In this document: positions 1,324-24,279 of the stretch, in pieces
Position numbering within the stretch: position 1 is the first letter of the stretch
Layout: each line of letters opens with the position of its first letter
Source of the DNA: Myxococcota bacterium
GTDB taxonomy: Bacteria; Myxococcota; JACRCW01
Assembly: GCA_040752415.1 (NCBI GenBank)
Contig: JBFMGU010000139.1
Location: forward strand, 1-28,207
DNA: 28,207 nucleotides
Reading direction: 5' to 3'
The notes under the pieces: generated by a model
Databases searched by the model: none
What the model saw: the letters and a program-made list of their open reading frames with translations, nothing else
Told to the model about the DNA's origin: nothing
Program-made: the position numbers and the translations under genes

Positions 1324-1330
1324 GGAGGAG
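1323..1330 (+). promoter_or_regulatory. Shine-Dalgarno sequence for the second PilT-family gene
   Basis: AGGAGGAG overlaps the last base of the upstream TGA and lies 4 nt before GTG at 1335. Confidence 0.8.
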
Positions 1331-1334
1331 CACC

Positions 1335-2387: not shown

Positions 2388-2665
2388 CCACGCTCACAAG
2401 CGTCCCCGGCGCTGTCCGGAAGGGGCCCACATCAGGGTTGTGCCTTTCTTGCTGCCCGGCTCGGGCGCCTGCTATCCCACCCTCTCATTGACGGATGGTG
2501 ACGTCGGGCGGGGGCGGCCGGCGCCTCCGGTTTTCTCGCTGGAAGACAGCGCGTGAGCCAGGATCCGGCCATGGAATGTCGCGTGGGGTTGGCGGGGCGC
2601 GGGGTGGTGACGCGAGGTGAGCCGGCCCACGGGATGACGACGTGGGTCTGCAAGAAGGAGCTGGA

Positions 2666-5600: not shown

Positions 5601-8600
5601 TGGTGGTCAACGCGGGCAACACCATCACGTACACACCCACCGCCGACCTCAACGGCGCGGACAGCTATGTCTACCGCGTCACCGACGTGAACGGCGACTC
5701 CGACACCGCCACGGTGAGCGTCACGGTCAACGCCGTCGATGATCTGCCGGTGGCCAACAACGACGCCGCCACCACCAACGAGGACACCGCGGTCACCACC
5801 AGCGTGCTGGGGAATGACACCGGCCTGGGCGACGGCGGACTCGTGGTCACCATCGTCACGGCGCCCACGCGCGGCTCGGTGGTGGTCAACGCGGGCAACA
5901 CCATCACGTACACGCCCACCGCCAACCTCAACGGCGCGGACAGCTATGTCTACCGTGTCACCGACGCCGACGGGGACAGCGCCACCGCCACCGTCAGTGT
6001 CACCGTCAACGCCGTCAACGACACGCCCAACGCCATCGACGACAGCGCGTCGACCAACGAGGACACCGCGGTGACCGTCAACGTGCTCGCCAATGACGTC
6101 GGCGCGGTGGACGGCACCATCACCGTCACCATCGTGACCGTGCCCAGCAACGGGTCCGCGGTGGTCAACGCGGGCAACACCATCACGTACACGCCCAACG
6201 CCAACTTCTTCGGCGCCGACAGCCTCGTCTACCGCGTCACGGATGGCGACGGGGAGAATGACACCGCCACCGTTTCCATCACCGTGAACAGCGTGGATGA
6301 CCAGCCCGTGGCGGTGAACGACGCGGCCACCACCAACGAGGACACCGCGGTCACCACCACCGTGCTGAGCAATGACACCGGCCTCGGCGACGGGAGCCTG
6401 ACGGTCACCATCGTTACCTCACCCACGCGCGGCTCGGTGGTGGTCAACGCCGGCAACACCATCACGTATACGCCCAGCGCCGACCTCAACGGCGCGGACA
6501 GCTACGTCTACCGCGTCACCGATGGCGACGGAGACAGCGCCACCGCCACCGTCAGTGTCACCGTCAACGCCGTCAACGACGTTCCCGTCGCCGTCAATGA
6601 CACGGTCACCACCAACGAGGACACCGCCGTGGCCACCACGGTGCTCGCCAACGACACCGGCATTGGCGACACGCCGCTCACCGTCACCGTCGTCACCGCG
6701 CCGACCAACGGGTCCACGTCGGTGGCGGGCAACGTGGTCACCTATACGCCGGCCGCGGACTACAACGGCGCGGACAGCTACGTGTACCGCGTCACCGACG
6801 GCAACGGAGAGAGCGCCACCGCCACGGTGGGTGTCACCATCAACGCTGTCGACGACCAGCCCGTGGCGGCCAATGACAGCGGGTCCACCAACGAGGACAC
6901 CGCGGTCACCGTCACCGTCCTCACCAATGACACGGGCCTGGGTGACCGGCCGCTCACCATCACTGTCGTCGGTGCGCCGTCCAATGGCTCCGCGGTCGTC
7001 AACGCGGGAAACACCATCACGTACACGCCTTCGGCCAACTTCTTCGGCTCGGACTCCCTCCGCTACCGCGTCACCGACGCCGACGGTGATTTCGCGGAAG
7101 CCGATGTCGCCCTCACGGTGAACGCCGTCAATGACACGCCCGTGGCCGCGGCCGACACCGCCACCACCAACGAAGACACCGCGGTCACCACCAGCGTGCT
7201 CACCAATGACACCGGTCTCGGCGACACGCCTGTCACCGTCAGCGTCACCACGGCGCCCACCCGCGGCAGCACCGTGGTCAACGCCGACAACACCGTCACC
7301 TACACCCCCAACGCCGACGTCAACGGCGCCGACAGCTACAGCTACCGCGTCACCGACGTCGACGGGCAGAACTCCACCGCCACGGTGACGGTCACCATCA
7401 ACGCCGTGAACGATGTCCCGTCGGCGGTGAATGACAGTGCCACCACCAACGAGGACACCGCGGTCACCGTCACCGTGCTCGCCAATGACACCGGGATCGG
7501 TGACACGCCGCTGACCGTGACGGTGCAGAGTGGTCCCTCGCGTGGCAGCGCGGTGGTCAACGCCGGCAACACCATCACGTACACGCCCAACGCCAACATC
7601 AACGGCGCGGACAGCTTCACCTACCAGGTCCGCGACGCCGACGGTCAGACCTCGACGGCGACCGTGAATGTCACCATCAACGCGGTGAACGACACGCCGG
7701 CAGCAGTGAACGACACGGCCACCACCAACGAGGACACCGCGGTCACCACCAGCGTGCTCGCCAACGACACCGGGCTGGGGGACACGCCGCTCACCGTCAC
7801 CGTCGTCACCGCGCCCACGCGCGGCAACACCGTTGTCAACGCCGACAACACCGTCACGTACACCCCCAACGCCAACATCAACGGCGCGGACTCCTACGTT
7901 TACGAGGTGCGCGACGCCGACGGGCAGACGTCGACCGCGACGGTGAATGTCACCATCAACGCGGTGAACGACACGCCGTCCGCCGTGGCGGATGCGGACG
8001 CGGTGAATGAGGACAGCTCGGTCACCACCGCCGTGCTCACCAATGACAGCGGGCTCGGCGACACGCCGCTGACGGTGAGCATCGCCACAACACCCAGCAA
8101 CGGCAGCGCGGTGGCCAACGCCGACAACACCGTCACGTACACGCCGTCGGCAAACTTCAACGGCACCGACAGCTACGTCTACCGCGTGCGTGACACCGAC
8201 GGACAGACCTCCACCGCCACGGTCACCATCACCGTCAACGCCGTGAACGACACGCCCGCCGCCGTGAATGATTCCGCTTCCGTCAACGAGGACAGCCCGG
8301 TGACCACCACCGTGCTCGTCAACGACACCGGGCTCGGCGACACACCGGTGACGGTCACCATCGTGACGAACGGCGCCAACGGGACCGCGGTGGTGAACGC
8401 GGGCAACACCGTCACGTACACGCCCGTTGCCAACTTCAACGGCACGGACAGCTACACCTACCGTGTCACCGACGCCGACGGGCAGACCTCCGACGCCACG
8501 GTGAGCGTCACGGTCAACGGCGTCAACGACACGCCAGTGGCCGTGGCCGACGCCGCGACAACCAACGAGGACACCGCGGTGACCACCACCGTGCTGGCCA

Positions 8601-11600
8601 ATGACACCGGCCTCGGCGACACACCGCTCAGTGTCACCATCGTCACCAACGGAACGAACGGGACCGCGGTGGTGAACGCGGGCAACACCGTCACGTACAC
8701 GCCCTCTGTCAACTTCAACGGCACGGACAGCTATACCTATCGCGTCACCGACGTCGACGGGCAGAGCGCCACCGCCACGGTCACCGTCACCATCAATGCG
8801 GTGAACGACACCCCCTCCGCCGTCAATGACAGCGCCACGACGAACGAGGACACCGCGGTCACCACCAGCGTGCTCACCAATGACACCGGGCTCGGCGACA
8901 CGCCGGTGACGGTCACCATCGTGACGAATGGCGCCAGCGGGACCGCCGTGGTGAACGCGGGCAACACCGTGACGTACACGCCCTCCGCCAACTTCTTCGG
9001 CAGCGACAGCTACATCTACCGCGTCACCGACGCCGACGGGCAGACCTCCGACGCCACTGTCTCGGTCACCGTCAACGCCGTGGATGACCAGCCGGTGGCG
9101 GTGAACGACGCGGCGGGAACCAACGAGGACACCGCGGTGACCACCACCGTGCTGGCCAATGACACCGCGCTGGGCGACACCCCGCTCAGTGTCACCATCG
9201 TCACCAACGGAACGAACGGGACCGCGGTGGTGAACGCGGGCAACACCGTGACCTACACGCCCGCGGCCAACTTCAACGGCACGGACAGCTACACCTATCG
9301 CGTCACGGACGTCGACGGAGACAGCGCCACGGCTACCGTCAACGTCACCATCAACGCGGTGAATGACACGCCCGCTGCCGTCAACGACACTGCGAGTGTC
9401 AACGAGGACAGCTCGGTCACCACCACCGTGCTCGCCAATGACACCGGCCTGGGGGATGCGCCTGTCGCCGTGAGCGTGACCGGCGCGCCGGCCAACGGAG
9501 CCACCGTCGTCAACGCCGACAACACCGTGACCTACACGCCCAACGCCGACTTCAACGGCGCGGACAGCTACACCTACCGGGTCACCGACAACGACGGGCA
9601 GTCATCCACCGCCACCGTCAACATCACGGTCAACGGTACCGACGACACGCCCAACGCCACCAACGACAACGGCACGTGCAACGAGAACGGCTTCGCCATC
9701 CTCAACGTGCTGAGCAACGACACGGGGCTGGGCGACACCCCGGTGACGTTGTCGGTGGTGGTTGACGCGCTCAATGGCGCGGCCACGGTCAATCCCGACA
9801 ACACCATCCGCTACACGCCCAACGCCTCCTACAACGGACCGGATACGTTCACCTACCAGGTTGCCGACGCCGACGGCGACAGCGACCTGGCCGTGGTGTT
9901 CGTCACCGTGGATTCCGTCGACGACGTGCCAGTGGCAGTCAATGACGCTGCATCGGTTGCGGAGGACGCGTTCGTCACCACCGACGTGCTCAGCAATGAC
10001 AGCGGCCTCGGGGACACGCCCATCTCGGTCAGCATCCGGACTCCGCCGGCCAACGGCACCGCGGTGGTGAACGCCGACCAGACCGTGCGCTACACGCCCA
10101 ACGCCAACTTCAACGGCGCGGACAGCTACGTCTACCGCATCACCGACAGCGACGGAGACACCGCCGACGCCACCGTGGCCGTCAACGTCTCCGCGGTGAA
10201 CGACACCCCGGTGGCCAACAATGACAGCGCCACCGTTGCGGAGGATGGCTCCGTCACCACCAGCGTGCTGCTCAACGATACCGGTCTGGGTGACGCGCCC
10301 GTCGTCGTCACGGTGGCCAGCGTGCCCGCCAACGGGTCCGCGGTGGTGAATGCCGACAACACCGTGACCTACACACCGGCGGCCAACTTCTTCGGCTCGG
10401 ATTCCTTCACCTATCGCGTCACCGACGTTGACGATCAGCAAGCCACCGCCACGGTCAGCATCACGGTCACCCCGGCCAACGACGTCCCGGTGGCGCTCGA
10501 TGACACCGACACCACCGACGAGGACACCGCGGTCACCACCACCGTGCTCACCAATGACACCGGGCTCGGAGATGCGCCGGTCACCGTGACCATCACCGTG
10601 GCACCCACGCGGGGAACGGCCGTGGTGAATGCGGACAACACCGTGACCTACACGCCCGACCCGCAGACCAGCGGCAACGACTCCTATGATTACGAAGTCA
10701 GCGACGTCGATGGCGAGACCTCCACCGCCACGGTTTCCATCACCGTCAATGCCATCAACGACACGCCGGTGGCCGCGGCGGACACCGGGAACACGTCGGA
10801 GGATGTCGCGCTGATCGTGGATGTGCTGGTCAATGACACCGGCACGGGGGACACGCCGCTGCAGGTGGTTGCCACGTCGCCGGCCAACGGAACCGCGGTG
10901 GTCCTGGCGGACAATCGCATCCGCTACACGCCGCGCGCGGACTTCAACGGCGTCGACACGTTCCAGTACACCGTCACCGACCAGGACAACCAGGCCAGCA
11001 GCGCCGACGTGACGGTCACGGTTGCCGCGGTGAATGACACGCCCGTGGCCACCGCCGACAGCGCCACCACCGACGAGGATGTCTCCGTCACGGTGCAGGT
11101 GCTCGTGAACGACGTGGGCCTCGGTGATGCACCGGTCGTCGTGTCCGTGGGCACGCCTCCTGCCAACGGCGCGGTGGTGGTCAACGTCGACAACTCCATC
11201 ACCTACACGCCCGGGGCGGACAACGTGGGCTTGGACTCGTTCGTCTACGTCGTCACCGACGATGACGGAGAGACGGCGTCCGCCTCCGTGGACCTCACCA
11301 TCAACCCGATCAATGACACGCCGGTGGCCACCAACGACGTCGACGCGGTGCCGGAGGAAGGCACGGTCACCACCGCGGTGCTCGCCAATGACTCGGGTCT
11401 CGGCGACCAGCCGGTTCTCGTCAGCATCACGACGCCGCCCGCCGTCGGCAGCGCGGTGGTCAACGGCGACAACACCGTGACCTTCACCGCCCCCGCCAAC
11501 TTCAACGGCCAGGTCACGTACACCTACGAGGTGCGCGACTCCGACGGTGAGCTGGCGAGCGCCCAGGTGACCGTCGACGTGGGAGCCGTGGATGACGTCC

Positions 11601-14600
11601 CGGTGGCGGTGGCGGACAACGCCACGCTCGACGAGGACACCAGCGTCACCGTGGACGTCACGCTCAACGACCTCGGCCTCGGCGACCTGCCGATCACGGT
11701 GAGCATTGCCGTGCCGCCCGTCGGCGGGAGCGCGGTGGTGAACGCGGACGGAACCATCACCTACACGCCCGCGCCCGACTTCAACGGCAGCGATGCCCTC
11801 GACTACCGCGTCCGCGACGCCGACGGGCAGGAGTCCACGGCCACCGTCAGCTTCACGGTCAACGCCACCAATGACACCCCGGCCGCGCTCGATGACACCG
11901 CGTCCGGTCCCGAGGATGCCGACGTCACCGTTGCGGTGCTCGCCAACGATCTCGGCGTGGGCGACCGGCCGCTCACCATCACCGTCGTCACGCCGCCTTC
12001 GCAGGGCAGCACCACCGTCAATCCCGACGGGACCATCTCCTTCACGCCCGCGCCGCAGGTCAGCGGCGACTTCACGTTCGAGTACGAAGTGGTCGACGCG
12101 GACCTGGAGACCACGCGTGCCCTGGTCACCGTGACCATCGACCCGGTCAACGACACGCCGACGGCGGTGGCGGACAACGCAACGGCTCCCGAGGATGGCA
12201 GCGTCACCGTCGACGTGCTCGCGAACGACACCGGCGTGGGCGATATGCCCGTGACCGTGACGCTGGAGCGCGCACCCGGCTTTGGCGTCGCGGTGGTGAA
12301 TGCCGACAACACCGTCACGTACACGCCCGCCGCCAACTTCTTCGGCACCGACACCCTGGACTACCGCGTCGCCGACGTGGACGACCAGTTCTCCGTCGCC
12401 ACGCTCACTGTCGTCGTGACCGGGGTGGATGACGCGCCGGTTGCCGTGGATGACGCGGCCAGCACGGACGAGGACGTTGCGGTCACCGTCGCGGTGCTCA
12501 GCAATGACAGTGGGCTCGGGGACACGCCGGTCACAGTCTCCGTCGGTACCGCGCCCACGTCGGGCACCGCGTTGGTCAACGCCGACAACACCATCACGTA
12601 CACGCCCTTCGCCGACGCGGTGGGCAATGACAGCTTCACCTACGTGGTGGGCGACGCCGACGGTCAGAACGCCACCGCCACGGTCACCATCACCCTGCGG
12701 CCCATCGATGACGTGCCGGTGGCCAACGACGACGCCGCGAGCTGCGCGGAGGGAACGGTCGCGGTGGTTGCGGTGCTGGCCAATGACAGCGGCATCGGCG
12801 ACGCGCCGCTGACGGTCACGGTGACGAGCACGCCGGGCTCCGGCACCGCGGTGGTGAACCCGGATGGCACCGTGACGTACACGCCCCAGGCGGACTTCTT
12901 CGGCACGGACGGGTTCGTCTACCAGGTCGTCGACGCGGACGGGCAGGGCGCCAGCGCCACCGTCGTCATCACCGTTGGCGGCGCCAACGACACCCCGTCC
13001 GCGGTCGACGACAGCGCCACCAGCGACGAGGACACCGCGGTCAACATCAACGTGCTCGCCAATGACCTGGGCGCGGTGGACCTGCCCATCAGCGTGTCCA
13101 TCAACGGCGCGCCCACGTCCGGCAGCGCCAGCGTGGAGTCCGACGGCAGCATCACCTACGCGCCCACCGCGAACTCCAATGGCACCGACACATTCACCTA
13201 CGTGGTCACGGATGCCGATGGGGAGAGCTCGCAGGCCACGGTGACCGTCACCATCAACGCCATCAATGACGCGCCCAGCTGCCAGCCGGATGCCATCAAC
13301 ACCGAGGTGGCGCAGCCCGCCCTCGTCGACGTGCTGGCCAACGACACCGACGTCGAGAACGACGCCCTGCTGCTGGTGAGCGTCACCGGGCCCACGCATG
13401 GCACGGCCGTCATCACCGCGGACAACAAGATCCTCTACACGCCGGAGGCGGGCTACAGCGGCAACGACACCTTCACGTATTCCGCGGGCGATGGAAACGG
13501 CGGTCTGTCCAGCGCGCTCGTCGTGGTCACCATTGGCCTGGACACCGACTCCGACGGTCTCACCGACGTGCAGGAGCAGCAGTGGAACACCGACCCCAAC
13601 AACGCGGACACGGACGGCGATCAGATCGAGGACGGTCGTGAGGTGTTCATCACCCTCACCACCCCGAATGACGACGACAGCGATGACGACGGTCTCGAGG
13701 ACGGCACCGAGGACGCCGACCAGGATGGCGTGGTGGATTCCGACGAGACCTCCGCCACCGCGCTGGACACCGACGGCGACGGTCTGCAGGACGGCACCGA
13801 GCTCGGTCTGACCGCGCCCGAGGGGCAGGACACGCTCTCCACCGTCTTCATCCCCGACGCGGATCCCACCACGCGCACCCTCCCCGGCGACGACGACTCC
13901 GACGACGACGGCGTCATGGATGGCAACGAGGACCTGGACCATGATGGCGGCGTCGACACCGGTGAGGCCAACCCGCTGGCGCGCGACAGCGACGGCGACG
14001 GCCTGCCCGACGGGCTGGAGCTCGGTCTCACCGCTCCGCAGGGTGACGACACCAACCTCCCCGACTTCGTGGCCGACGCGGACCCCAGCACCACCACCAA
14101 CCCCGCGCTCGTCGATACCGACACCGGCGGCTTGGCGGATGGCGTGGAGGACGTGAACCTCAACGGTCGCATCGACCCAGGGGAGAAGGACCCCAACGAC
14201 CCCACCGACGACGGCACCACGCTGGACTTTGATGGCGACGGCCTGCTCGACGCCGAGGAGTACACCATCGGCACCGACCCGTCGGACGCCGACTCCGATG
14301 ACGACGGCGTGGTGGACGGCAGCGAGCCCAGCTACCGCTTGGACAGCGACGGCGACGGCCTGATCAACGCGATGGACGCCGACGCCGACAACGACGGTCT
14401 CTTCGACGGCACGGAGCTGGGCCTCACCGCTCCCGCCACCGGCACGGACACGTGGGTCCGCAACTTCATCCCCGACGCCGATCCCGCCACCACCACCAGC
14501 CCGCTGCTCGCCGACACCGACGGCGGAACGCGGCGCGACGGCGCGGAGGACGTGAACCACAACGGTCGCGTCGACGCTGGCGAGACCGATCCCAACAACC

Positions 14601-16684
14601 CCGCCGACGACACCACCGTGACGCCAACCGATGGCGACGGCGACGGACTGGATGACGCCGAGGAGGCCACGCTGGGCACGGATCCCGCCGACGCCGACAG
14701 CGACGACGACGGCGTGCGCGACGGCTTCGAGCCGAACTTCGCCGTGGATTCCGACGGCGACGGTCTGATCAACCCGCTTGACCCCGACAGCGATAACGAC
14801 GGCGTGCTCGACGGGACCGAGCTGGGCCTGACGGCTCCGGACGCCAGCACCAACGTGCAGCGCGGCCACTTCCTGGCGGACGTGGATCCCGCCACGGTGA
14901 CCAACGCGTTGCTCGCCGACACCGACCGCGGCGGTGCGCGCGACGGCGCGGAGGACGGCAACCACAATGGCCAGGTGGACAGCGGTGAGACCAACCCGCT
15001 GGACCCCAGCGATGACAACGCGGTGCAGGATACCGACGGCGACGGTCTCTCCAACGTGGAGGAGCGCGCCATTGGCACCAACGAGGGTGACGCTGACAGC
15101 GACGACGACGGCGTGGTCGATGGCATGGAGGCCAACTACGCGCTGGATACCGACGCTGACGGCCAGATCAACGCGCTGGACCTGGACTCCGACAATGACC
15201 TCGTGTTCGACGGCACGGAGGTCTCGGTGGTCACGCCCCACGCCGACACGCAGGTGGACCGCGGCAACTTCGTGGCGGACGCGGACCCGGCGGCGCACAC
15301 CTCCATGGTGGTCGTGGACTCCGACCGCGGCACCGTGGGCGACGGCGTGGAGGACACCAACCACAACGGCGCCATCGACGTGGGAGAGACCAACCCCAAC
15401 GACCCCACCGACGACATCCGCCCGCCCGCGGACACCGACTCGGACGGCCTCCCCGACGCGGAGGAGCTCACCCTCGGCACCAACTACCGCGACGCGGACA
15501 GCGATGACGACGGCGTTATCGACGGCGCCGAGCCGCGCTACGCCGAGGACACCGACAACGACCGCCTCATCAACGCGCTGGACCAGGACTCCGACAACGA
15601 CGGCGTGGTGGACGGGACGGAGCTGGGTGTGGTCACTCCGCACGTCGACACCAACCTGGCGCGCGGATTCTTCCTGGCTGACGCCGACCCGTCCACCACC
15701 ACCGACCCGCTGGACGCCGACACCGACGACGGCACCATCGACGACGGCGCGGAGGACGGCAACCACAACGGTCGCATCGACGAGGGAGAGACCAACCCCA
15801 ACAACCCCGCGGACGACCTGCCGGGACCGCCGGACATCGACAACGACGGCCTCTCCAACACCGAGGAGGCGCTGGTGGGCACCAACCCCGAGGACGCCGA
15901 CAGCGACGACGACGGTGTCATTGACGGCCTGGAGCCCAACTACGCCATCGACACCGACGGCGACGAGGCGATCAACGCGCTGGACCACGACTCCGACAAC
16001 GACGGGATCTTCGACGGCACCGAGCTTGGCGTGACCACGCCGGGCGCCGCCACCAACGTGGACGCGGGCCGGTTCGTTGCGGACGTGGATCCCGGCACCA
16101 CCACCAACCCGCTTGCGGCGGACACCGACTCCGGCACCGTCGATGACGGCGTGGAGGACGCCAACCACAACGGTCGCATCGACCCGGGTGAGACGGATCC
16201 CAATGACCCGGCGGATGACCAGGGCGGCAGCTCCTCCAGCTCGTCGGGTGGCAGCAGCTCCACGGGTGGAACCTCGTCGTCGTCGGGATCCTCCAGCGGG
16301 CAGAGCGGCGGCACCAGCAGCAGCGGTGGCTCCTCCAGCGGTGAGAGCAGCAGCAGTGGCTCCTCCAGCGGTGAGAGCAGCAGCGGCGGTGGCTCCTCCA
16401 GCGGCGGGAGCAGCACCACGGGCTCGTCGAGCGGTGAGATCAGCAGCACGTCCAGCAGCTCCTCCAGCAGCGGCGACGTAGTTTCCGGCGGCTCCTCCAG
16501 CGGCGCCGGTGGCGTCGACGGTGGGTCCATCAACGAGATCCCCAACAGCGAGATGCCCGAGGACGGCTTCGTCGCCGGTGGCGGCTGTCTCAATTGTGCG
16601 TCGTCGGGTGGCGCGGACGCCGGCCTGCTCGCTCTGGTGATGCTCTCGCTGCGCGTGGCGCGGGTGCGTCGTCGTCGGGAGTGA
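2666..16684 (+). CDS. Giant repetitive cell-surface protein / putative adhesin (~4,672 aa) with lipoprotein-like signal and MYXO-CTERM-like tail
   Basis: RBS AAGGAG at 2655-2660, ATG at 2666. N-terminus [19 protein letters not shown] (basic, hydrophobic, lipobox-like). Recognisable RTX, Cys-rich, DUF11, Ig-like and TSP3-like repeats. C-terminus GGGC...[19 protein letters not shown]. Confidence 0.93.
   Translation: [4672 protein letters not shown]
2828..3340 (+). repeat. RTX/hemolysin-type Ca2+-binding nonapeptide repeats (19 units, 27-bp period)
   Basis: Contiguous GGxGxDxUx-type units from GTSGDDTLN to GGADVDACS; the last two units are degenerate. Confidence 0.9.
3365..3445 (+). repeat. 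Single Myxococcus cysteine-rich repeat (DUF4215-like)
   Basis: [27 protein letters not shown] fits the CGNG...E-x-CDDGN...DGC...C pattern. Confidence 0.88.
4586..4925 (+). other. DUF11 (conserved repeat / OmcB-like) domain within the giant protein
   Basis: NLTLTKSA...[15 protein letters not shown]...[18 protein letters not shown]...[11 protein letters not shown]. Confidence 0.82.
5180..13535 (+). repeat. 30 tandem Ig/cadherin-like repeats (Big_9 / tandem-95 type, ~93 aa, ~279-bp period)
   Basis: Counted 30 units of the form NDxPxAxxDxxxTxEDxxVxxxVLxND...TYTPxxxFxGxDSYxYxVxDxDG...ATVxxTV. Confidence 0.92.
13541..16220 (+). repeat. Asp-rich thrombospondin type-3-like Ca2+-binding repeats, including five ~134-aa super-repeats
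   Basis: DxDxDGLxDxxE...[19 protein letters not shown]...DSDNDGxxDGTELG units start at 14225, 14630, 15029, 15431 and 15833 (399-405 bp spacing), preceded by related partial units from 13541. Confidence 0.88.
16223..16525 (+). repeat. Ser/Gly-rich low-complexity linker containing a 30-bp tandem duplication
   Basis: [10 protein letters not shown]...; GTGGCTCCTCCAGCGGTGAGAGCAGCAGC occurs at 16326-16354 and 16356-16384. Confidence 0.85.
16577..16684 (+). other. MYXO-CTERM-like C-terminal sorting signal
   Basis: GGGC(LNC) motif, short spacer, hydrophobic segment LLALVMLSL, Arg-rich tail RVRRRRE. Confidence 0.82.
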
Positions 16685-16830: not shown

Positions 16831-17871
16831 TCAGTCCTTGCGCTCCAGGTGGAGCAGGCCCTTGCCGCCTTCGCTGGTGACCCACAGGTCGCCGCGGTGA
16901 TCAAAGGCCAGGCCCTCCGGCTGGAGCCGCCCACTCCCGCTGATGCGCGGCAGCTCCGTGGTGCCCAGCCCCTCCAGCTCCCAGCTCGTCCGCGCGCGCC
17001 CCGCTGCGCCGCCGCGCATGTTCAGCTTCAACGACGCCTCGAGGATCGTCTCGGCGCGGTCGGACAGGATGAACAGGTGACCGGTCCTGGGATCCACGGT
17101 GATGTCGCTGAGATCCTCCAGCGCGTCCTTGTGGCTCTCGGGCAGCTCCAGCAGCGCTTCCACCTCGCCGCTCTTGCGGTCCAGCACGCCAATGCGTCGC
17201 GGGCTCCCCTCGTGCACGGCGAGCAGGTGCGGCTTTCCGTCGGGGGAGAGACGCGCGGGCAGCACCGCAATGCCTTCCCAGCCCTTGTTCCCCTCGTCAT
17301 TGAGCGCGGGCAGCTTGCACAGTCGCTCCGCCTTTCCCAGTGAGAGCTCGTCGCCACCACGGTCCACCTTGACCTGCAGGACCTCGCGGGTGTCCTCGCT
17401 CACCAGCAGCAGCGTCTTCGCGTCCGCGTCGTACGCGCCGCCCTCCAGCCCCTTGAGCTTGCCGCCGCTCGGCTCCAGCTCGGTGGCGTCCGCCTTCTTC
17501 CCCCGGGGGATGCCCACCTGCCACAGCGCGCTGCCGTCGTCCGCGGCCACCACGAAGCCGTGCTCCGGCGAGATGAACGCCAGCGCGGAGGGCTCGCCGA
17601 TGTCCACCTCGTGACGGCCCTTGAGCTCAAAGCTCGTCGCCTTCGCCTTGCCGGGGCCGGCATTGCTCCCCGTGGTGCCCAGCAGCTCCTCCAGCATGGC
17701 GCGCCCGTCGGCGGTGAAGCGGTCCTTCTCGCGGGCCAGCTTCTGCAACAACGCGGCCTCGTCGTCATTGATCTTGCTCCCCGCCGCTTCCTGCAGCTTG
17801 CGGATGTCGGAGACGTCAACCTGACGACGAGGAAGACGACGGATGGCATCACTGAGGCGGTCAACGCTCAT
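16831..17871 (-). CDS. SdiA-regulated (YjiK-like)/phytase-like beta-propeller protein with an N-terminal helical extension (~346 aa)
   Basis: Blade motifs EPSALAF, GLEGGAYD...LLLVSE, NKGWEGIA, DLSDITVDPRTGHLFILSD, QPEGLAFDHRGDLWVTSEG. ATG at 17871 follows an AAGGGG RBS-like sequence. Confidence 0.82.
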   Translation of the reverse strand: MSVDRLSDAIRRLPRRQVDVSDIRKLQEAAGSKINDDEAALLQKLAREKDRFTADGRAMLEELLGTTGSNAGPGKAKATSFELKGRHEVDIGEPSALAFISPEHGFVVAADDGSALWQVGIPRGKKADATELEPSGGKLKGLEGGAYDADAKTLLLVSEDTREVLQVKVDRGGDELSLGKAERLCKLPALNDEGNKGWEGIAVLPARLSPDGKPHLLAVHEGSPRRIGVLDRKSGEVEALLELPESHKDALEDLSDITVDPRTGHLFILSDRAETILEASLKLNMRGGAAGRARTSWELEGLGTTELPRISGSGRLQPEGLAFDHRGDLWVTSEGGKGLLHLERKD

Positions 17872-17927
17872 GGGAACCCCTTGTGACCCGGGACTCTCCT
17901 CCACGTCGGGCGCAACCCGCAACCGCT

Positions 17928-18016: not shown

Positions 18017-20683
18017 ATGACCACGTTCCATGTCCAGCGGGGAGTGCAGTTCAAGACGGAGCTGTATCGCGGTCCGGACCGCAACGCCTGGTTCAAGGCG
18101 GTGGGTGATGAGCTGGCCGCGCGCAAGCTGACCATCCAGCTCGCCCCCGGCGTCGAGGTGAAGAACGCCGACGACCTCGTGGCGCTGATGGGCCGCTTCA
18201 AGAACGACCGCGCCGCGCTGGCCGCCGCCATCGGCCTGCCCGCCGAGACCACCGTCGAGAACTACATCGGCGACATCATCCAGGCGCTCGACGACGCGGT
18301 GAGCCCCACCTCCAACGTCAAGGACAAGATGCTGGACTTCCGTCCGTCGAGCGACATCGGGAAGCTGCTCGGCCTGGACACCAAGGCGCGTTATGCGTCG
18401 GGCAGCACCCAGTTCGGCAAGCAGGGCGCGCAGCCCACCTTCAGCGTGCTGGGCATCCAGCTCTCGCGCAGCGCCGCCCCGGTGGATCCGCTCGAGGGCA
18501 AGGCCTTCATTGACTCCACCACCTTCGCCGCCGGGGGTTATGCGGGCTGGAACCGTGACAGCGTCGAGCTTGAGCAGGTGATGGGCGTGACCGGCATGGA
18601 CCCCATGGCGCTGCTGGACCTGCTGCGCAGCACCAACGCCGCGGGGCGCTCGGTGTACCAGCGGCTGCGCAAGCCGGAGGTCTGTGAGGCGTTCACGCTC
18701 GGCTACAGCGGCGTCGGCATCGACGACATGAAGTGGGACTCCGAGAGCCACCGCACGCGCGAGGCCAATCGTTTCGTCTCGCTGACCGTCGAGGGCGGCC
18801 GCTTCGAGCCCGACCAGCGCACCGGTGAGCGGGAGATCTCGCTGGGCACCGACAAGATGGACGACGTCTACTACGACACCAACAAGTTCGACCTGCTGAA
18901 GAACGGGATGAGCGTTCGTGGTCGCGCGCGTTGGGACACGGACACGGAGATCCGTCGTCTGCTCGTCGGCGTGAAGGCGGACAGCCAGATTGACGAGTTC
19001 GGGCTGAAGCGCTGCGCCAAGGTGGACGTGCGCAATGACAGCGCCACCCCCGACGACATCAAGAACCTGGACACCGACGTGCGCCGTGGCAAGGTGGCCT
19101 GGAACAACGCCGACGCGCCGCTGGACCCGCTCAAGGGCGTCTACGACAAGCTGAGCAGCAAGGGCGCGCTCCCCAACGTGGGCCCGCACGAGAAGGTGCT
19201 CCTCATGGAGCCCAAGTTCCACGTGCGCAGCGTCCGCAGCCGCTACCACCTCAACGAGACCAGCCTCAGCTCCATCAAGCAGCAGTACAAGGCCTGCACC
19301 GAGGACAAGTTGAAGCAGGTGCTGGACCTTGTCACCAAGGCCAAGGCGGGCGCGCAGGGCGCGGACCTGGAGACGCTGGGCAAGCTGGAGAAGACCGGGC
19401 AGGGGCTGCTCGACGGTAGCCTGGTGACGTCGCTGGTGACCGACAAGCTGAAGGCCATTGACCCCAACATGGACGTCACCCTCGACGCGGTGAAGGCGCT
19501 CATGCCCAAGGCCGACGGCAACAGCTGGAACACGCCGCAGAACGACACGCTCTCCGTCGAGAAGAAGCGCGTGGTCTCCGAGGCCATCTGCGAGGCGTTC
19601 CACACCTACGCGGAGGAGATCGACGGCGCGCGTCGACTCATCGCCGGGGCCAAGGACCGTGCGCTGGCGCCGTACGCGGACATGTTCGTGCGTTGGCAGA
19701 AGGCGGCGGACAAGAACCTGCTCAACAAGAACACCTATGAGCCGTTCCTGGCGTCGTACGACAAGCTGGTGGCGCTGCCGCAGGCGGACCTGGACACGCA
19801 GCTCAAGGCCTTCAATGACCACGGCACGGCGCAGAAGGCCGCGGGTGATCGTCGGTTCCGCGACTTCCAGCCGCTGACGTCGGACCAGCTCAAGGCGCTG
19901 CGCCCGCACCTGGTGAATGAGATGCTGGACATCAACCACCGTCAGCTGGAGGCGGGTGGCACCATGGCCAGCACGCTGTGGTTCGACGAGGCACGCTCCT
20001 TCTACGTGCCGCAGAGCTACCGCAACACCAGCAACTTCCTCATCGACACCACCGACCTCAGCGAGTTCGTGAAGCACGACGCGTGGGGGTCCATCCCCGA
20101 GGGCGAGCGCACGCCCGCCAAGCCGCTTCCCAAGGACAAGATCTTCCACGCCATGCTGGTGAACGAGACGCAGATCGAGCTGGGCTTGGAGAAGCCCTAC
20201 CTGGACCGCATGGCGGAGATGCAGAAGGGCATCAACGTCGACCGTGCCAGCCTGGTGATGAAGTTCCTGGAGCAGGGCGCCACGCCGGCCGCCGACCCCG
20301 CCGTGCATCACGACGCATTGAAGGCGCTCTTGGCGAGCCCGGAGAAGGACGCGCACCTGCAGAAGATCAACGCGTTCATCAAGGCGCAGGGCAGCGCGCT
20401 GGCTCCGGTGACGGCGGAGGAGCTTGCCCGTCTGGAGAAGGACGTCTTCACCGCCGCCAACCGCGACCTCGCCGTGCGCACCACGCCGGACAAGGAGAAG
20501 TCGCTGGAGGGCGCGCGCTTCGTGTTCGAGCAGTACCGCAATGCGCAGAAGTTCATCGTCGAGGCGAAGGGTGAGCGCATCATGAAGGTGCTGAAGGACG
20601 CGGGCGCGCCGCAGAACCTCGGCTGGAAGCAGACCGACGCGTCCAAGGGCGACACCGGGATGAAGCTGCTGGCCAATCCCTGA
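18017..20683 (+). CDS. 888-aa hypothetical protein with dispersed CYTH/triphosphate-tunnel-like motifs
   Basis: Long ORF with strong GC3 bias and RBS GGGGAG at 18003-18008. Contains VELE, DDVYYDT..FDLLKNGMSVRGR, VGVK, RSVRSRYHL, FLID, ETQIE and SKGDTGMKLL. The CDS itself is well supported; the CYTH assignment is moderate. Confidence 0.75.
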   Translation: MTTFHVQRGVQFKTELYRGPDRNAWFKAVGDELAARKLTIQLAPGVEVKNADDLVALMGRFKNDRAALAAAIGLPAETTVENYIGDIIQALDDAVSPTSNVKDKMLDFRPSSDIGKLLGLDTKARYASGSTQFGKQGAQPTFSVLGIQLSRSAAPVDPLEGKAFIDSTTFAAGGYAGWNRDSVELEQVMGVTGMDPMALLDLLRSTNAAGRSVYQRLRKPEVCEAFTLGYSGVGIDDMKWDSESHRTREANRFVSLTVEGGRFEPDQRTGEREISLGTDKMDDVYYDTNKFDLLKNGMSVRGRARWDTDTEIRRLLVGVKADSQIDEFGLKRCAKVDVRNDSATPDDIKNLDTDVRRGKVAWNNADAPLDPLKGVYDKLSSKGALPNVGPHEKVLLMEPKFHVRSVRSRYHLNETSLSSIKQQYKACTEDKLKQVLDLVTKAKAGAQGADLETLGKLEKTGQGLLDGSLVTSLVTDKLKAIDPNMDVTLDAVKALMPKADGNSWNTPQNDTLSVEKKRVVSEAICEAFHTYAEEIDGARRLIAGAKDRALAPYADMFVRWQKAADKNLLNKNTYEPFLASYDKLVALPQADLDTQLKAFNDHGTAQKAAGDRRFRDFQPLTSDQLKALRPHLVNEMLDINHRQLEAGGTMASTLWFDEARSFYVPQSYRNTSNFLIDTTDLSEFVKHDAWGSIPEGERTPAKPLPKDKIFHAMLVNETQIELGLEKPYLDRMAEMQKGINVDRASLVMKFLEQGATPAADPAVHHDALKALLASPEKDAHLQKINAFIKAQGSALAPVTAEELARLEKDVFTAANRDLAVRTTPDKEKSLEGARFVFEQYRNAQKFIVEAKGERIMKVLKDAGAPQNLGWKQTDASKGDTGMKLLANP

Positions 20684-20791
20684 GGCGCCCCCGGTTCACC
20701 GTGACGACGACATCTTGTGGCGCGGACCATTCCTGTCTGCGATCCCACGGCGGAGTGGCCGGCCGCACCAGCCCCCACTAAGGTGCGCGCC

Positions 20792-21706
20792 ATGTCCTCC
20801 AACGCCTTCCGCACCGGTGCCGCTCTTGGCCTGACCATGTCTCTTGCCGCCGCGCCCGCCGTGGGCGGACGCGCCGCTCCCGTCGTCGACCACGAGGCGG
20901 AAGTGCGTGCCTGGCACAAGGACCGCATCGCCCGTCTCACCAGCGAGACCGGGTGGCTCACCGTGGTGGGTCTGTTCTGGCTCAAGGAGGGCGAGAACAC
21001 CTTCGGCTCTGCCGCGGGCAATGACCTGGTGTTCCCGGGCAGGGCGCCGGCGCGCATGGGTCGGTTCACGCTCAAGGGTGACAACGTGACGCTGACGTTG
21101 GAGAGCGGCGTGACGGTGACGCTGGGGGACAAGCCGTTCACCGGCGGCGCGGTACGCACCGACGCACAAGGTGGTCCCGACGTGCTCAAGCACGGTTCGC
21201 TGATGTTCAACCTCATCCAGCGCGGCCCCAAGGTCGGCGTGCGGCTGAAGGACTCGGAGTCGGAGGCGCGCAAGGCCTTCAAGGGCATCGAGACGTATCC
21301 GGTCCGTCGGGAGTGGCGCGTGGAGGCGCGCTGGGAGCCGCACAAGGAGCCCAGGAAGATTCCCGTGTCCAACGTCATTGGCATGACCGAGCCCATGGAC
21401 GCGCCCGGGGTGGCGGTGTTCACCGTCGGCGGGAAGGAGTACCGGCTGGAGCCCGTGATCGAGGAGCCCGGCGCCAACGAGCTGTTCTTCATCTTCGCCG
21501 ACGAGACGAGCCGGACCGAGACCTATGGCGCGGGTCGGTTCCTGTACACGTCCCTGCCCAGGGACGGGAAGCTCACCATCGACTTCAACAAGGCCTACAA
21601 CCCGCCGTGCGCGTTCACCAAATACGCCACGTGTCCGCTCCCGCCGCCGCAGAACCGTCTCGCGTTGCGTGTGGAGGCGGGTGAGAAGCGTTACGGCGAC
21701 CACTGA
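20792..21706 (+). CDS. DUF1684 family exported protein (~304 aa)
   Basis: GWLTVVGLFWL, FADETSRTETYGAGRFL, DFNKAYNPPCAFTKYATCPLPPPQNRL...AGEK. Signal-peptide-like N-terminus; TAAGGTG upstream of the ATG at 20792. Confidence 0.9.
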   Translation: MSSNAFRTGAALGLTMSLAAAPAVGGRAAPVVDHEAEVRAWHKDRIARLTSETGWLTVVGLFWLKEGENTFGSAAGNDLVFPGRAPARMGRFTLKGDNVTLTLESGVTVTLGDKPFTGGAVRTDAQGGPDVLKHGSLMFNLIQRGPKVGVRLKDSESEARKAFKGIETYPVRREWRVEARWEPHKEPRKIPVSNVIGMTEPMDAPGVAVFTVGGKEYRLEPVIEEPGANELFFIFADETSRTETYGAGRFLYTSLPRDGKLTIDFNKAYNPPCAFTKYATCPLPPPQNRLALRVEAGEKRYGDH

Positions 21707-21708
21707 TC

Positions 21709-24279
21709 ATGACCACCACCGCGCTTTCCTCGTCGACCTCGTGGCCGCTGGCCCGTCTCCTGCCCGAGGGCACGGCCAAGCTGGACCAGGATGAGGTGTT
21801 GAACCGTTTCCTCGCGTTCGTGGCGGAGCGCGGGCTCTCGCTCTACCCGGCGCAGGAGGAGGCGCTGCTGGAGATTGTGGCGGGGAAGAACATCATCATG
21901 AACACGCCCACCGGGAGCGGGAAGAGCCTGGTGGCGGAGGCCATGATCTTCAAGACGGTGTGCGACGGAAAGCGCGCCGTCTACACCTGTCCCATCAAGG
22001 CGCTGGTGAACGAGAAGTTCTTTGCGCTGTGCAATGACTTTGGTCCGGAGCGGGTGGGCATGATGACGGGAGACGCGGCCATCAACCGCGACGCGCCCAT
22101 CATCTGCTGCACCGCGGAAGTGCTGAGCAACTGGGCCTTGCGGCAGGGCGAGTACACGCCGGCGCAGGCCGTGATCATGGACGAGTTCCACTACTACACC
22201 GACCGCGAGCGCGGCGTGGCGTGGCAGGTCCCGCTCCTGACCATGCCGCAGAGCACGTTCCTGCTGATGAGCGCCACGCTCGGCGACACCACGCGCTTCG
22301 AGGAGGGACTGACGCGTCTCAACGGCAAGCCCACGGCGGTGATCCGCAGCATGCAGCGCCCCGTGCCGCTGGAGTTCGAGTACCGCGAGACGCCGCTTCA
22401 CGAGACCATCGAGGAGCTGATTGGGGAGCGGAAGTATCCCATCTACGTGGTGAACTTCACGCAGCGGGCGTGCGCGGAGGAAGCGCAGAACCTGATGAGC
22501 GTGAACTTCTGCACGCGCGAGGAGAAGCAGGCCATCAACGAGGCGCTGGCGGATTTCCACTTTGACACGCCGTACGGCAAGGAGATCCAGAAGTTCCTGC
22601 GTCATGGTCTGGGCCTGCACCACGCCGGTCTCCTGCCGAAGTACCGTCTGCTCACCGAGAAGCTGAGCCAGCAGGGCCTGCTGAAGATTGTGTGCGGGAC
22701 GGACACGTTGGGCGTGGGAGTGAACATCCCCATCCGCTGCGTGCTGTTCACCAAGCTGTGCAAGTACGACGGAGAGAAGACCGGCATCCTGAGCGTGCGG
22801 GAGTTCATGCAGATCAGCGGCCGGGCGGGTCGCAAGGGTTTTGACGACGAGGGCTTCGTGGTGGTGCAGGCGCCGGAGCATGTCATCGAGAACATCCGGA
22901 TTGACATGAAGAAGGCTTCGGACCCGCAGAAGTACAAGAAGCTGCAGAAGGCCAAGCCGCCGGAGAAGGGCTTTGTGCACTGGGACCGGCAGACGTTCGA
23001 GAAGCTGACCACGCGCCCGCCCGAGGAGCTGCAGAGCCGTTTCAACGTGAGCCACGGCATGCTGATCCACCTGTTGCAGTCGGACAATGGCAGTCGCCAG
23101 GGTGGCTACGGGCGCATGGTGGAGCTGATTTCCGCCAGCCACTCCGACGAGCGGACGAAGCGCGCGCACCGTCGGACGGGGCGGCTGTTGTTCCGTTCCC
23201 TGCTGCACGCGGAGCTGATCAAGCTGGTGCGCCGTCCCTCGGGACGCGGGCAGCTGGTGGAGGTGAGCTCCAGCCTGCAGCGCGACTTCTCGCTGAACAC
23301 CACGTTGTCGTTGTTTCTCGTCGAGACATTGGCGGCGTTGGACCCGGAGTCGGAGACCTACGCGCTGGATGTGCTGACGGTGGTGGAGTCCACGCTGGAG
23401 GACCCCGACACGATCTTGTTCCGCCAGTTGGACAAGCTGAAGAAGGAGAAGCTGGCGCAGCTGAAGGCGGAGGGCGTGGAGTACGAGCAGCGCATCGAGG
23501 AGCTGGAGAAGCTGGAGCATCCCAAGCCGCTGCGGGACTTCATCTACGGCACCTTCAACGCGTTCGCCGACAAGCACCCGTGGCTGGGGCAGAACAACAT
23601 CAAGCCCAAGAGCGTGGCGCGAGAGATGTATGAGCGTTTCTGCACCTTCCACGAGTACATCCGCGAGTACGAGCTGCAGCGCAGCGAGGGGCTGCTGTTG
23701 CGTTATCTCTCGGACACCTACAAGACGCTCTTGCAGACGGTGCCGGACAGCTACAAGACGCAGGAGGTCTACGAGATCACGGAGTACTTCCGGACGATGA
23801 TCCGCTCGGTGGACTCCAGTCTCGTCGACGAGTGGGAGGGCATGCAGGGCGGGGTGGGCAAGCGGGAGGGTCCACCGCCGTCACCCACGCGTCAGCCGGA
23901 CCTGGCGGAGAATCCCAAGGCCTTCACGGCGCGGGTGCGGTCGGAGATGCACCTGTTGCTCAAGGCGTTGGCGGACAAGGACTACGCGGCGGCGTTGGGC
24001 CTGATGTGTCCGGACCAGGATGACGCGTGGACGGTGGAGCGCCTGGAGTCATCGCTGAAGGACTACTACGCGACCTATCCGTCGATCATGGTGCACCACG
24101 GGGCGCGCACGGCGGCGCACACGTTGATCAAGGTGTTGGAGCCACGTCGGTGGAGTGTGGTGCAGACGTTGGTGGACCCGGAAGGTGACAACCAGTGGAT
24201 GCTGGACGCTGAAGTTGACCTGCGCGCTCGCAAGGACGTGGAGGGTCCATTGATCACGCTGCGCCGCATCGGCGTGTAG
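21709..24279 (+). CDS. Ski2/HelY-like DExH-box helicase with C-terminal DUF3516 (856 aa)
   Basis: Q motif YPAQEEA, PTGSGKS, PIKALVNEKF, MTGD, DEFH, SAT, HHAGL, TDTLGVGVNIP, QISGRAGRKG; later PKSVAREMYE and RSEGLLLRYLSDTYK typical of DUF3516 helicases. Confidence 0.9.
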   Translation: MTTTALSSSTSWPLARLLPEGTAKLDQDEVLNRFLAFVAERGLSLYPAQEEALLEIVAGKNIIMNTPTGSGKSLVAEAMIFKTVCDGKRAVYTCPIKALVNEKFFALCNDFGPERVGMMTGDAAINRDAPIICCTAEVLSNWALRQGEYTPAQAVIMDEFHYYTDRERGVAWQVPLLTMPQSTFLLMSATLGDTTRFEEGLTRLNGKPTAVIRSMQRPVPLEFEYRETPLHETIEELIGERKYPIYVVNFTQRACAEEAQNLMSVNFCTREEKQAINEALADFHFDTPYGKEIQKFLRHGLGLHHAGLLPKYRLLTEKLSQQGLLKIVCGTDTLGVGVNIPIRCVLFTKLCKYDGEKTGILSVREFMQISGRAGRKGFDDEGFVVVQAPEHVIENIRIDMKKASDPQKYKKLQKAKPPEKGFVHWDRQTFEKLTTRPPEELQSRFNVSHGMLIHLLQSDNGSRQGGYGRMVELISASHSDERTKRAHRRTGRLLFRSLLHAELIKLVRRPSGRGQLVEVSSSLQRDFSLNTTLSLFLVETLAALDPESETYALDVLTVVESTLEDPDTILFRQLDKLKKEKLAQLKAEGVEYEQRIEELEKLEHPKPLRDFIYGTFNAFADKHPWLGQNNIKPKSVAREMYERFCTFHEYIREYELQRSEGLLLRYLSDTYKTLLQTVPDSYKTQEVYEITEYFRTMIRSVDSSLVDEWEGMQGGVGKREGPPPSPTRQPDLAENPKAFTARVRSEMHLLLKALADKDYAAALGLMCPDQDDAWTVERLESSLKDYYATYPSIMVHHGARTAAHTLIKVLEPRRWSVVQTLVDPEGDNQWMLDAEVDLRARKDVEGPLITLRRIGV

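Follow-up and report, generated by a model that had tools for sequence, protein, structure and literature searches.

The gene described here lies on a 28,207-nucleotide contig of a Myxococcota bacterium (JBFMGU010000139.1, assembly GCA_040752415.1), which was analysed at its full length and is called the window below. Its open reading frame (ORF; 18017-20683, forward strand) begins with an ATG about 7 nucleotides (nt) downstream of a Shine–Dalgarno-like GGGGAG and encodes a protein of 888 amino acids (aa), P0001. The frame remains open for just 16 codons further 5′ of this ATG (full open frame, 904 aa), and the GC content at its three codon positions (0.64/0.41/0.94) resembles that of the neighbouring genes. 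A divergent upstream gene encodes a predicted beta-propeller protein related to SdiA-regulated and phytase-like proteins. Judged from its predicted structure, P0001 is a genuine, highly derived barrel of the CYTH or triphosphate tunnel metalloenzyme (TTM) type, split by large inserts. Ordinary TTM/CYTH enzymes are compact domains of 170-250 aa. The genome of this bacterium (11.0 Mb, 96.8% complete) holds a single copy of the P0001 gene, and a search of it for the canonical CYTH family PF01928 found none at E<=0.1; of 151 genomes sampled from the phylum, 48 have PF01928.

A database search yielded 48 homologues of P0001, and weak Pfam CYTH matches were found in 37 of 47 family members (best E 3.1e-4). 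An NCBIfam scan of P0001 gave nothing significant, phmmer against PDB sequences returned 0 matches, and the family profile searched against the PDB reached E>=0.32 at best, with weak rows for thiamine triphosphatase (ThTPase) among the results. ESM Atlas searches with P0001 led to CYTH, CHAD/CYTH and VTC clusters, all below the reliability bar of that resource. A match of P0001 to the DNA polymerase III psi subunit (E 0.031) was rejected as spurious.

We built an AlphaFold2 model of P0001 from an alignment of 47 homologues, with a mean predicted local distance difference test score (pLDDT) of 92.8 and a predicted template modelling score (pTM) of 0.80. Its strands span residues 182-192, 277-287, 298-306, 312-325, 331-340, 398-414, 675-686, 709-720 and 869-872, and a helix (877-886) lies at the C terminus. 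Foldseek against the PDB placed Escherichia coli YgiF at the top, and the leading matches were nearly all TTM enzymes. VIA-align, used to re-check these matches and, independently, to search 48,161 representative chains, gave the highest scores to YgiF (5a60/5a61; Z 15.4, root mean square deviation (rmsd) 3.3-3.4 Å, 200 residues, 18% identity) and Arabidopsis AtTTM3 (Z 15.0-15.4, rmsd likewise 3.3-3.4 Å, 200-203 residues), with 202 of the 203 residues of 5a68 covered. These were followed by SaTTM (Z 12.7-13.0 in ligand complexes, 8.7 in the apo form), AtTTM1/2 (7Z67; Z 11.1, 164 residues), ThTPase (Z 10.2-11.1), the class IV cyclase CyaB (Z 10.6-11.1, rmsd 3.5-3.8 Å, 170-174 residues), Vtc4/Vtc2 (Z 9.0-10.4, 205-225 residues) and the RNA triphosphatases (Cet1, Z 8.9; Cet1, Pct1 and the mimivirus enzyme together, Z 8.5-9.0). 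For all TTM targets, the aligned model residues ran from ~180 to ~884-888, across every insert, and therefore describe one whole TTM barrel made of segments that are 84, 57, 260 and 148 residues apart. From the superposition statistics we infer that the barrel is closed and that the tunnel residues converge.

These results support the central claim of an earlier, sequence-only reading of this DNA, which had described P0001 as a CYTH/TTM barrel broken by very large inserts and had proposed structure prediction followed by a fold search as a check. The AlphaFold2 model, Foldseek and the VIA-align Z of 15.4 all agree with it, and YgiF and AtTTM3 were returned as the best structural matches. The insert sizes that it had estimated also match the model: ~84 aa after strand 1, ~260 helical aa (415-674) and ~148 aa (721-868), in addition to an N-terminal domain of ~175 aa. 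In the model, the inserts are grown versions of the loops that bear short helices in ordinary CYTH proteins of 170-250 aa; the counterpart of insert A in YgiF, for example, has ~25 residues. In the whole-model search, the large insert at 415-674 matched generic four-helix bundles only (Z<=8.1). CHAD (PF05235) did not emerge as its identity, with no Pfam match at E<=10 and with YgiF aligned in the whole-model search at 0-202 only, outside its CHAD part. The inserts are also modular across the family: forms of ~560-620 aa lack profile positions ~530-625 and ~735-820, forms of ~750-790 aa lack ~740-820, and positions ~735-820 of the second insert are also absent from ~590-aa forms. The barrel of this expanded family thus accommodates ~500 inserted residues in three loops with the tunnel still conserved. 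The segments are listed together with the other features in Table 1.

Table 1. Coordinates of the P0001 gene, the segments of its product, and neighbouring or family-associated genes (window positions unless a locus is named).
Feature	Position	Strand	Basis and remarks
Expanded TTM/CYTH protein gene (P0001)	18017..20683	+	ORF list, translation; 888 aa plus stop
N-terminal alpha/beta domain, residues 1-175	18017..18541	+	Folded alone, pLDDT 87; specific to signal-less clade
Barrel strand 1, residues 180-192	18554..18592	+	R180, E184, E186 invariant; position 188 is Val
Insert A, residues 193-276	18593..18844	+	Model: short helices, one strand
Barrel strands 2-5, residues 277-340	18845..19036	+	DDVYYDT, R301/R303/R305, R314, K320, K331/K335/D337/R339; weak Pfam CYTH; hhalign
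Helical link, strand 5 to 6, residues 341-397	19037..19207	+	Model
Barrel strand 6, residues 398-414	19208..19258	+	R404, R407, R409, H411
Large helical-bundle insert, residues 415-674	19259..20038	+	Model helices 417-663
Barrel strands 7+8, residues 675-720	20039..20176	+	D677, D680, E717-x-Q719-x-E721; E721 just past strand
Second helical insert, residues 721-868	20177..20620	+	Model
Last strand and C-terminal plug helix, residues 869-888	20621..20680	+	S876-K877-G878; VIA-align ranges; K877 conservation
SdiA-regulated/phytase-like beta-propeller, divergent upstream neighbour	16831..17922	-	Pfam; no signal peptide
T2SSE-type ATPase genes, in tandem	76-1323 and 1083-2387	+	
Giant 4680-aa protein	2642-16684	+	
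DUF1684 gene	20717-21706	+	
DEAD-box/DUF3516 helicase	21709-24279	+	
Cluster c5 genes in other loci	L021:8303-9505, L025:6065-7339, L026:6776-7957, L034:1317-2567, L055:2988-4208, L057:8224-9423, L065:4927-6144		

We counted residue conservation among 124 family proteins of >=500 aa, with denominators giving those aligned at each position, and observed that the tunnel residues are kept almost without exception. In strand 1 these are R180 (109/109), E184 (108/109) and E186 (109/109); in strands 2-5, R301 (115/116), R303 (115/116), R305 (114/116) and K320 (116/116), with K331, K335, D337 and R339 kept in all family proteins bar one or two; and in strand 6, R407 (117/117), R409 (116/118) and H411 (115/118). 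D677 (99/110), D680 (106/110), E717 (96/109, with 11 more Asp), Q719 (106/108), E721 (105/108) and the C-terminal K877 (77/78) complete the set. The motifs that the sequence-only reading had listed (E184/E186, D282-T288, R301/R303, K320, R404-L412, D677, E717/E721 and K877) all lie in the translation at the residues it gave and, because they are near-invariant across the 124 proteins, are not chance on this sequence evidence. Its expectation that E184, E186, R301, R303, K320, R407, D677, E721 and K877 would be kept in homologues held throughout. Its description of strand 1 as ExExQ was a register slip; Q187 is an 'x' of that motif, and the position of the canonical Lys is residue 188, which is Val in P0001.

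The VIA-align superpositions start with model residue 180 paired with YgiF 0 and finish with 888 paired with 202, and therefore equate E184/E186 with YgiF E4/E6 and S876-K877 with S190-K191. An hhalign comparison of the family profile with YgiF placed 283-304 on 38-59 (E 0.023, weak alone, in agreement with the fold result), and R301 and R303 therefore correspond to R56 and R58. With the inserts removed from the profile, hhalign paired K320 with YgiF K69 and R407 with R126 at low statistical support (E ~0.01). Both D677 and D680 are candidates for the counterpart of YgiF D143, at the end of strand 7, and profile–profile alignment of the de-inserted strand 7/8 segments gave spurious local matches only (E 0.095-0.13). 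According to the available part of a structural study of these enzymes, mutation of R56 in YgiF or R52 in AtTTM3 strongly inhibits catalysis, metal 2 of YgiF is held by E4, E6 and E162, and metal 1 is held by E160, the E160/E169 equivalent being invariant in the TTMs characterised so far (PMC4641920). Beyond the canonical set, the tunnel of the expanded family carries extra invariant basic residues (R180, R305, R314, K331, R339, R404 and H411), which suggest that its ligand may be longer or more highly charged.

We next describe the N termini, which differ between clades. TTM enzymes are generally cytoplasmic. Signal calls by a hydropathy and lipobox heuristic on the 124 proteins gave a signal-like N terminus in 57, of which 32 have a lipobox; the others comprise 39 signal-less proteins of the window type or an 'MxxIG' type, 15 of other types, and 13 that are truncated at the N terminus. 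Many of the signals are clear Sec or lipoprotein signals (for example, ...LLLTVGC). P0001 itself begins MTTFHVQR... and aligns with its relatives from residue 1; together with the short upstream open frame, this therefore leaves no room for a signal peptide. In a tree of the core (FastTree, midpoint root), signal-bearing forms grouped together, as did signal-less forms, and forms with a PG_binding_1 domain fell beside P0001-P0004. We also observed a K[A/S/E]D[G/A] motif ('...FGG..AKADG', '..SKADG', '..GKADA') 10-40 residues past the lipobox, as in loci L016, L011, L021 and L055. It occurs in 25 of 60 signal-bearing TTMs, 10 of 15 propeller partners and 4 of 7 proteins of the neighbour cluster c5 (Table 1), and elsewhere in 3 of 64 signal-less TTMs and 6 of 409 other locus proteins (4 of the 158 signal-bearing ones). 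From its distribution in these sequences, this motif may be a tag that these proteins have in common for sorting or processing.

For residues 1-175, the VIA-align scan found no structural relative at Z>=5 among the 48,161 chains (best Z 4.2), Foldseek gave none at E<=0.001, and ESM Atlas searches with this domain gave nothing usable. Other clades carry in its place a lipoprotein signal with a helix-hairpin-helix (HhH) segment, a PG_binding_1 domain (7 of 47 family members) or a subtilase. The HhH segment lies C-terminal to the lipobox in Kofleriaceae-type forms, where Pfam HHH_3 matches weakly (3 of 47 members, best E 0.0015); HHH_3 was also found at E 9e-9 in a related repeat protein, P0188. 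HhH modules are typically DNA-binding. An N-terminal Peptidase_S8 (subtilase) domain is fused to the TTM core in two long forms. Among the fusion forms P0091, P0096 and P0108, P0091 ends in a DUF4056 domain, whereas P0108 starts with a signal peptide and ends in a PPC domain, the only PPC domain of this kind noted in the family.

The divergent neighbour of the P0001 gene matched PF06977 (E 2e-17, 63.7 bits against a cut-off of 21) and PF13449 (E 5.8e-11, 43.2 bits against 27.6). Its true start is likely the ATG at 17871 (346 aa), because the N terminus of the partner in locus L042 is similar and an SD-like AAGGGG is present. The same two families were found in genes adjoining the TTM gene at 13 further loci. 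Of 75 loci including the window, 27 have a propeller relative <=500 bp from the TTM gene by six-frame profile search; this is a lower bound, as many loci end near the TTM gene. Among these 27 loci, the propeller gene is divergent and upstream in 19, downstream on the same strand in 5 and upstream on the same strand in 3; two more loci have a farther propeller downstream (cluster c17, hhalign probability 92%). The presence of signals was concordant within the 15 readable TTM/propeller pairs, with signals on both proteins in 12, on neither in 3 (the window, L001 and L042) and no discordant pair. Invariant acidic residues of the partner (E110, D128, E160, E176, E216, E238, D270 and E336) would fit a Ca-dependent propeller hydrolase, by what we take to be an analogy with Ca-phytases. 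A prediction of a complex between the core (160-888) and the partner propeller (95-363) gave an ipSAE of 0.00 in both runs, which had no controls and weigh neither for nor against a contact. We also noticed that the signal-less partners (window ORF residues 18-100, and L042) have in common a helical N-terminal extension of ~80 aa (MSV.R.S....DI..L.EAAG.K...) that is absent from exported partners.

Other genes also occur near the TTM gene. In two loci it is directly preceded, on its own strand, by a gene for the polyphosphate kinase PPK1 (L030:6644-9508, 25 nt away, and L032:7214-9526, 70 nt away); L066 has a histidine phosphatase downstream of the TTM, and Ser/Thr kinases are near the TTM in five loci. 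In 7 loci the TTM gene adjoins a gene of cluster c5, which encodes an exported protein of ~400 aa with no Pfam family; as a candidate propeller, c5 was not detectable as such (hhalign probability 5%).

To place P0001 in its wider distribution, we combined searches of sequence databases and genomes. An exhaustive profile search of 1.84 billion cluster representatives matched 196 of them at E<=0.001, and 111 at the stricter E<=1e-30. A genome scan gave 74 loci in Myxococcota and Planctomycetota, those of Myxococcota falling in Myxococcaceae, Archangium, Kofleriaceae, Polyangia, Nannocystaceae, Haliangiales and Bradymonadia. Within the phylum, 45 of 401 sampled genomes matched at E<=1e-10, representing 16 of 154 genera, and 39 of these 45 belong to a single bacterial family, itself represented by 172 genomes. 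Database names of family members are 'hypothetical' or, for PG_binding_1 forms, 'peptidoglycan hydrolase-like'. The family is thus rare and unnamed in the databases searched and, being also invisible to Pfam, is currently 'hypothetical' in the annotations examined. A literature search, with most subscription journals outside its scope, found nothing on an expanded TTM family or on an exported TTM. Genomes G227, G247, G228, G289 and others, mostly of the same bacterial family, contain a second and more distant family with open frames of ~580-630 aa, which match the profile at ~278-430 only (strands 2-6) with E 1e-11 to 1e-18; it may be another derived TTM. A separate Pfam CYTH search gave weak matches at model positions 35-135 within open frames of 1143-1519 aa.

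The remaining genes of the window were considered as partners and rejected. Searches by tblastn found DUF1684, the DEAD/DUF3516 helicase, PutA and the T2SSE ATPases each beside relatives in 0 of 74 loci, and the N terminus of a giant adhesin in 1 of 74. This giant protein has an N-terminal signal-like segment, RTX nonapeptide repeats, 30 Big_9/cadherin-like repeats, TSP3-like acidic repeats, a Ser/Gly-rich tail and a hydrophobic and basic anchor at its end; the T2SSE-type (type II/IV secretion, PilB/CpaF-like) ATPase genes lie directly upstream of it. The DUF1684 gene ends 2 nt before the helicase gene. A role in anti-phage defence was likewise set aside, as neither the TTM nor its partner nor DUF1684 had a PADLOC match, and the helicase matched generic HamB-like helicase models only.

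Three of these observations are new relative to the sequence-only reading: about half of the family is signal-bearing, a propeller is paired with the TTM, and the N-terminal domain is without a detectable structural relative. We favour a reading in which P0001 is a derived TTM metalloenzyme that would hydrolyse a polyphosphate-like polyanion, equipped with helical inserts and a propeller partner in the same compartment, and regard this reading, taken whole, as having about an even chance of being right. The tunnel would bind a metal–polyphosphate-like polyanion and most likely hydrolyse a phosphoanhydride, our best guess being tri- or polyphosphate, because the strand-1 acidic pair, the catalytic Arg and a dense array of Arg and Lys are strictly conserved and tripolyphosphatases are the closest in structure; the two loci with PPK1 beside the TTM count in the same direction. 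The helical inserts would lengthen or gate the mouths of the tunnel. Its chemistry probably departs from that of a canonical TTM, with the Lys of ExExK absent and one strand-8 Glu apparently replaced by Gln. Conserved adjacency and matching signal peptides suggest that the TTM would cooperate with the phytase-like propeller in one compartment, which would be extracytoplasmic for the signal-bearing forms. A more ambitious version, which we consider unlikely as a whole, is that the family is the first extracytoplasmic branch of TTMs to be recognised, made up of lipoproteins or secreted proteins with a remodelled metal site and helical lids in the barrel, acting with a Ca-type phytase-like propeller as a two-protein system that would degrade polyphosphate, phytate or like polyanions outside the cell; the signal-less clade and its PG_binding_1 sisters would then be delivered by a non-Sec route, possibly in predation.

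Several observations weigh against the favoured reading. The Pfam CYTH match to P0001 is sub-threshold (13.8 bits against a gathering threshold of 23.2, E 0.051) and covers residues 280-303 only. In a comparison set of 31 canonical proteins (YgiF and 30 ordinary CYTH proteins of the same phylum), K8, E160, E162 and D143 are each kept in 31 of 31, whereas the Lys of ExExK is not kept in the expanded family, in which position 188 is V in 59, A in 26 and T in 22 of the proteins aligned there and never K. In strand 8, the family has E-x-Q-x-E where the canonical pattern is (E)-x-E-x-E, and a simple register puts Q719 at one canonical Glu. A bulge in strand 8 would let E717 and E721 occupy both canonical Glu sites; the spacing to the next helix and the preceding hydrophobic residue favour Q719 as the counterpart of E160. 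The missing Lys together with Gln at a canonical Glu could mean a loss of catalysis. The TTM fold also occurs in non-enzymes, as the Mediator subunits Med18/Med20 scored Z ~9-11. Finally, P0001 and its partner are both without a signal peptide, so that 'exported' cannot be claimed for this gene. Of the 75 loci, only 27 have a propeller next to the TTM and only 2 have PPK1 there.

Some of these points would fit a tunnel that lost catalysis with its Lys and one strand-8 Glu and serves as a high-affinity module for binding a polyphosphate-like or other polyanion, in a receptor, sensor or scaffold. Such a module would explain why position 188 is never K and why Q719 stands at a Glu that is kept in 31 of 31 canonical CYTH proteins; the Med18/Med20 matches (Z ~9-11) supply a precedent, and the N-terminal modules of the relatives are binding or anchoring domains. 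However, E184, E186 and R301 are essentially invariant, and a pure binder needs neither an acidic metal pair nor this exact constellation; Gln, moreover, is still able to ligate metal. The invariance of the E160/E169 equivalent in the characterised TTMs, as given in the available part of the study cited above, adds to the case for lost catalysis (PMC4641920). We judge this alternative improbable on balance.

The signal-less clade could instead comprise antibacterial or predation effectors, delivered by a non-Sec route to hit the phosphate or nucleotide pool of a target, with the propeller as immunity protein or helper. The core tree places PG_binding_1 forms that lack a Sec signal next to P0001-P0004, the propeller travels with the TTM in three arrangements, and most of the hosts are predatory lineages (Myxococcota and Bradymonadia). 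However, no secretion-system gene, PAAR, VgrG or Rhs was linked to the TTM in the loci examined, and there was no PADLOC match; in exported clades the partner is exported too, unlike a cytoplasmic immunity protein, and this is a single-copy family with a vertical distribution in one bacterial family (39 of 172 genomes). We consider an effector role quite unlikely.

A nucleotide cyclase of the class IV (CyaB) type, producing cAMP or another cyclic nucleoside monophosphate (cNMP) with the inserts as regulatory modules, would belong to the same superfamily, and CyaB structures match the model at Z 10.6-11.1. The tripolyphosphatases score clearly higher, at Z 15.4, and about half of the family carries export signals, and NTP is scarce outside the cytoplasm; in addition, no cNMP-binding or signalling partner was present among the neighbours in the examined loci. 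We therefore hold this activity to be very unlikely. We think equally little of nucleic-acid end-processing, in which the enzyme would act as a Cet1-like 5′-triphosphatase or similar on extracellular or envelope-associated nucleic acid. The HhH-like segment past the lipobox of exported members is in line with it, as are the matches to Cet1, Pct1 and mimivirus RNA triphosphatases (Z 8.5-9.0), which are TTMs also larger than the minimal domain. However, these Z scores fall below those of the small-molecule TTMs, the clade of P0001 is without HhH, and the phytase-like partner and PPK1 neighbours point to small or inorganic phosphate substrates.

A polyphosphate polymerase of the Vtc4 type would draw on the matches to Vtc4/Vtc2 tunnels (Z 9-10.4), an unusually basic tunnel (R180, R305, R314, K331, K335, R339, R404 and H411) and the two PPK1 neighbours, but ATP is unavailable to exported forms and no membrane channel turned up as a partner. 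With Vtc4p described in the available part of the same study as having basic residues in place of the acidic patch, and E184/E186 invariant in the expanded family, this possibility is hardly credible (PMC4641920).

If the favoured polyanion hydrolase is active at the envelope, the family would give soil and sediment bacteria a new class of enzyme that processes polyphosphate or organophosphate outside the cell. In signal-bearing members from Myxococcota and Planctomycetota, the TTM barrel would have moved to the cell envelope by means of export signals and of cell-wall or HhH modules. Small changes in a single tunnel determine the substrate range of TTMs (inorganic tripolyphosphate, polyphosphate, thiamine triphosphate, RNA ends and NTP cyclisation). 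An active enzyme of this family would further amount to a natural test of the two-metal mechanism, in which Gln replaces a Glu reported as invariant.

Among known systems, P0001 is most like E. coli YgiF (5A60/5A61), its best structural match, which likewise joins a TTM barrel to a large helical part. The helical CHAD of YgiF follows the barrel, whereas the helical bundles of P0001 sit inside it; YgiF has K8 and E158/E160/E162 where the expanded family has V/A/T and E/Q/E, and YgiF is without a signal peptide, whereas half of the expanded family is signal-bearing. The short-chain tripolyphosphatase AtTTM3 (5A5Y/5A67/5A68) is covered almost completely at Z 15.0-15.4; by contrast, AtTTM3 is minimal, at ~210 aa, and P0001 is four times longer and lacks the ExExK Lys. 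CyaB (2FJT, 3N0Z, 3N10) has the superfamily and the tunnel in common with P0001, but is cytoplasmic, has ~180 aa and is structurally less similar than the triphosphatases. In AtTTM1/2 (7Z67), a kinase-TTM multidomain protein, the TTM is also joined to an extra domain, which is appended there and inserted into the barrel loops in P0001. A two-metal acidic patch and a catalytic Arg are described for AtTTM3 in the part of the structural study that was available (PMC4641920). As in P0001, the barrels of yeast Vtc4/Vtc2 and of Cet1-type RNA triphosphatases exceed the minimal domain, but they do so with other accessory elements, and Vtc4, by the same partial source, is without the acidic patch (PMC4641920), whereas P0001 keeps its acidic pair.

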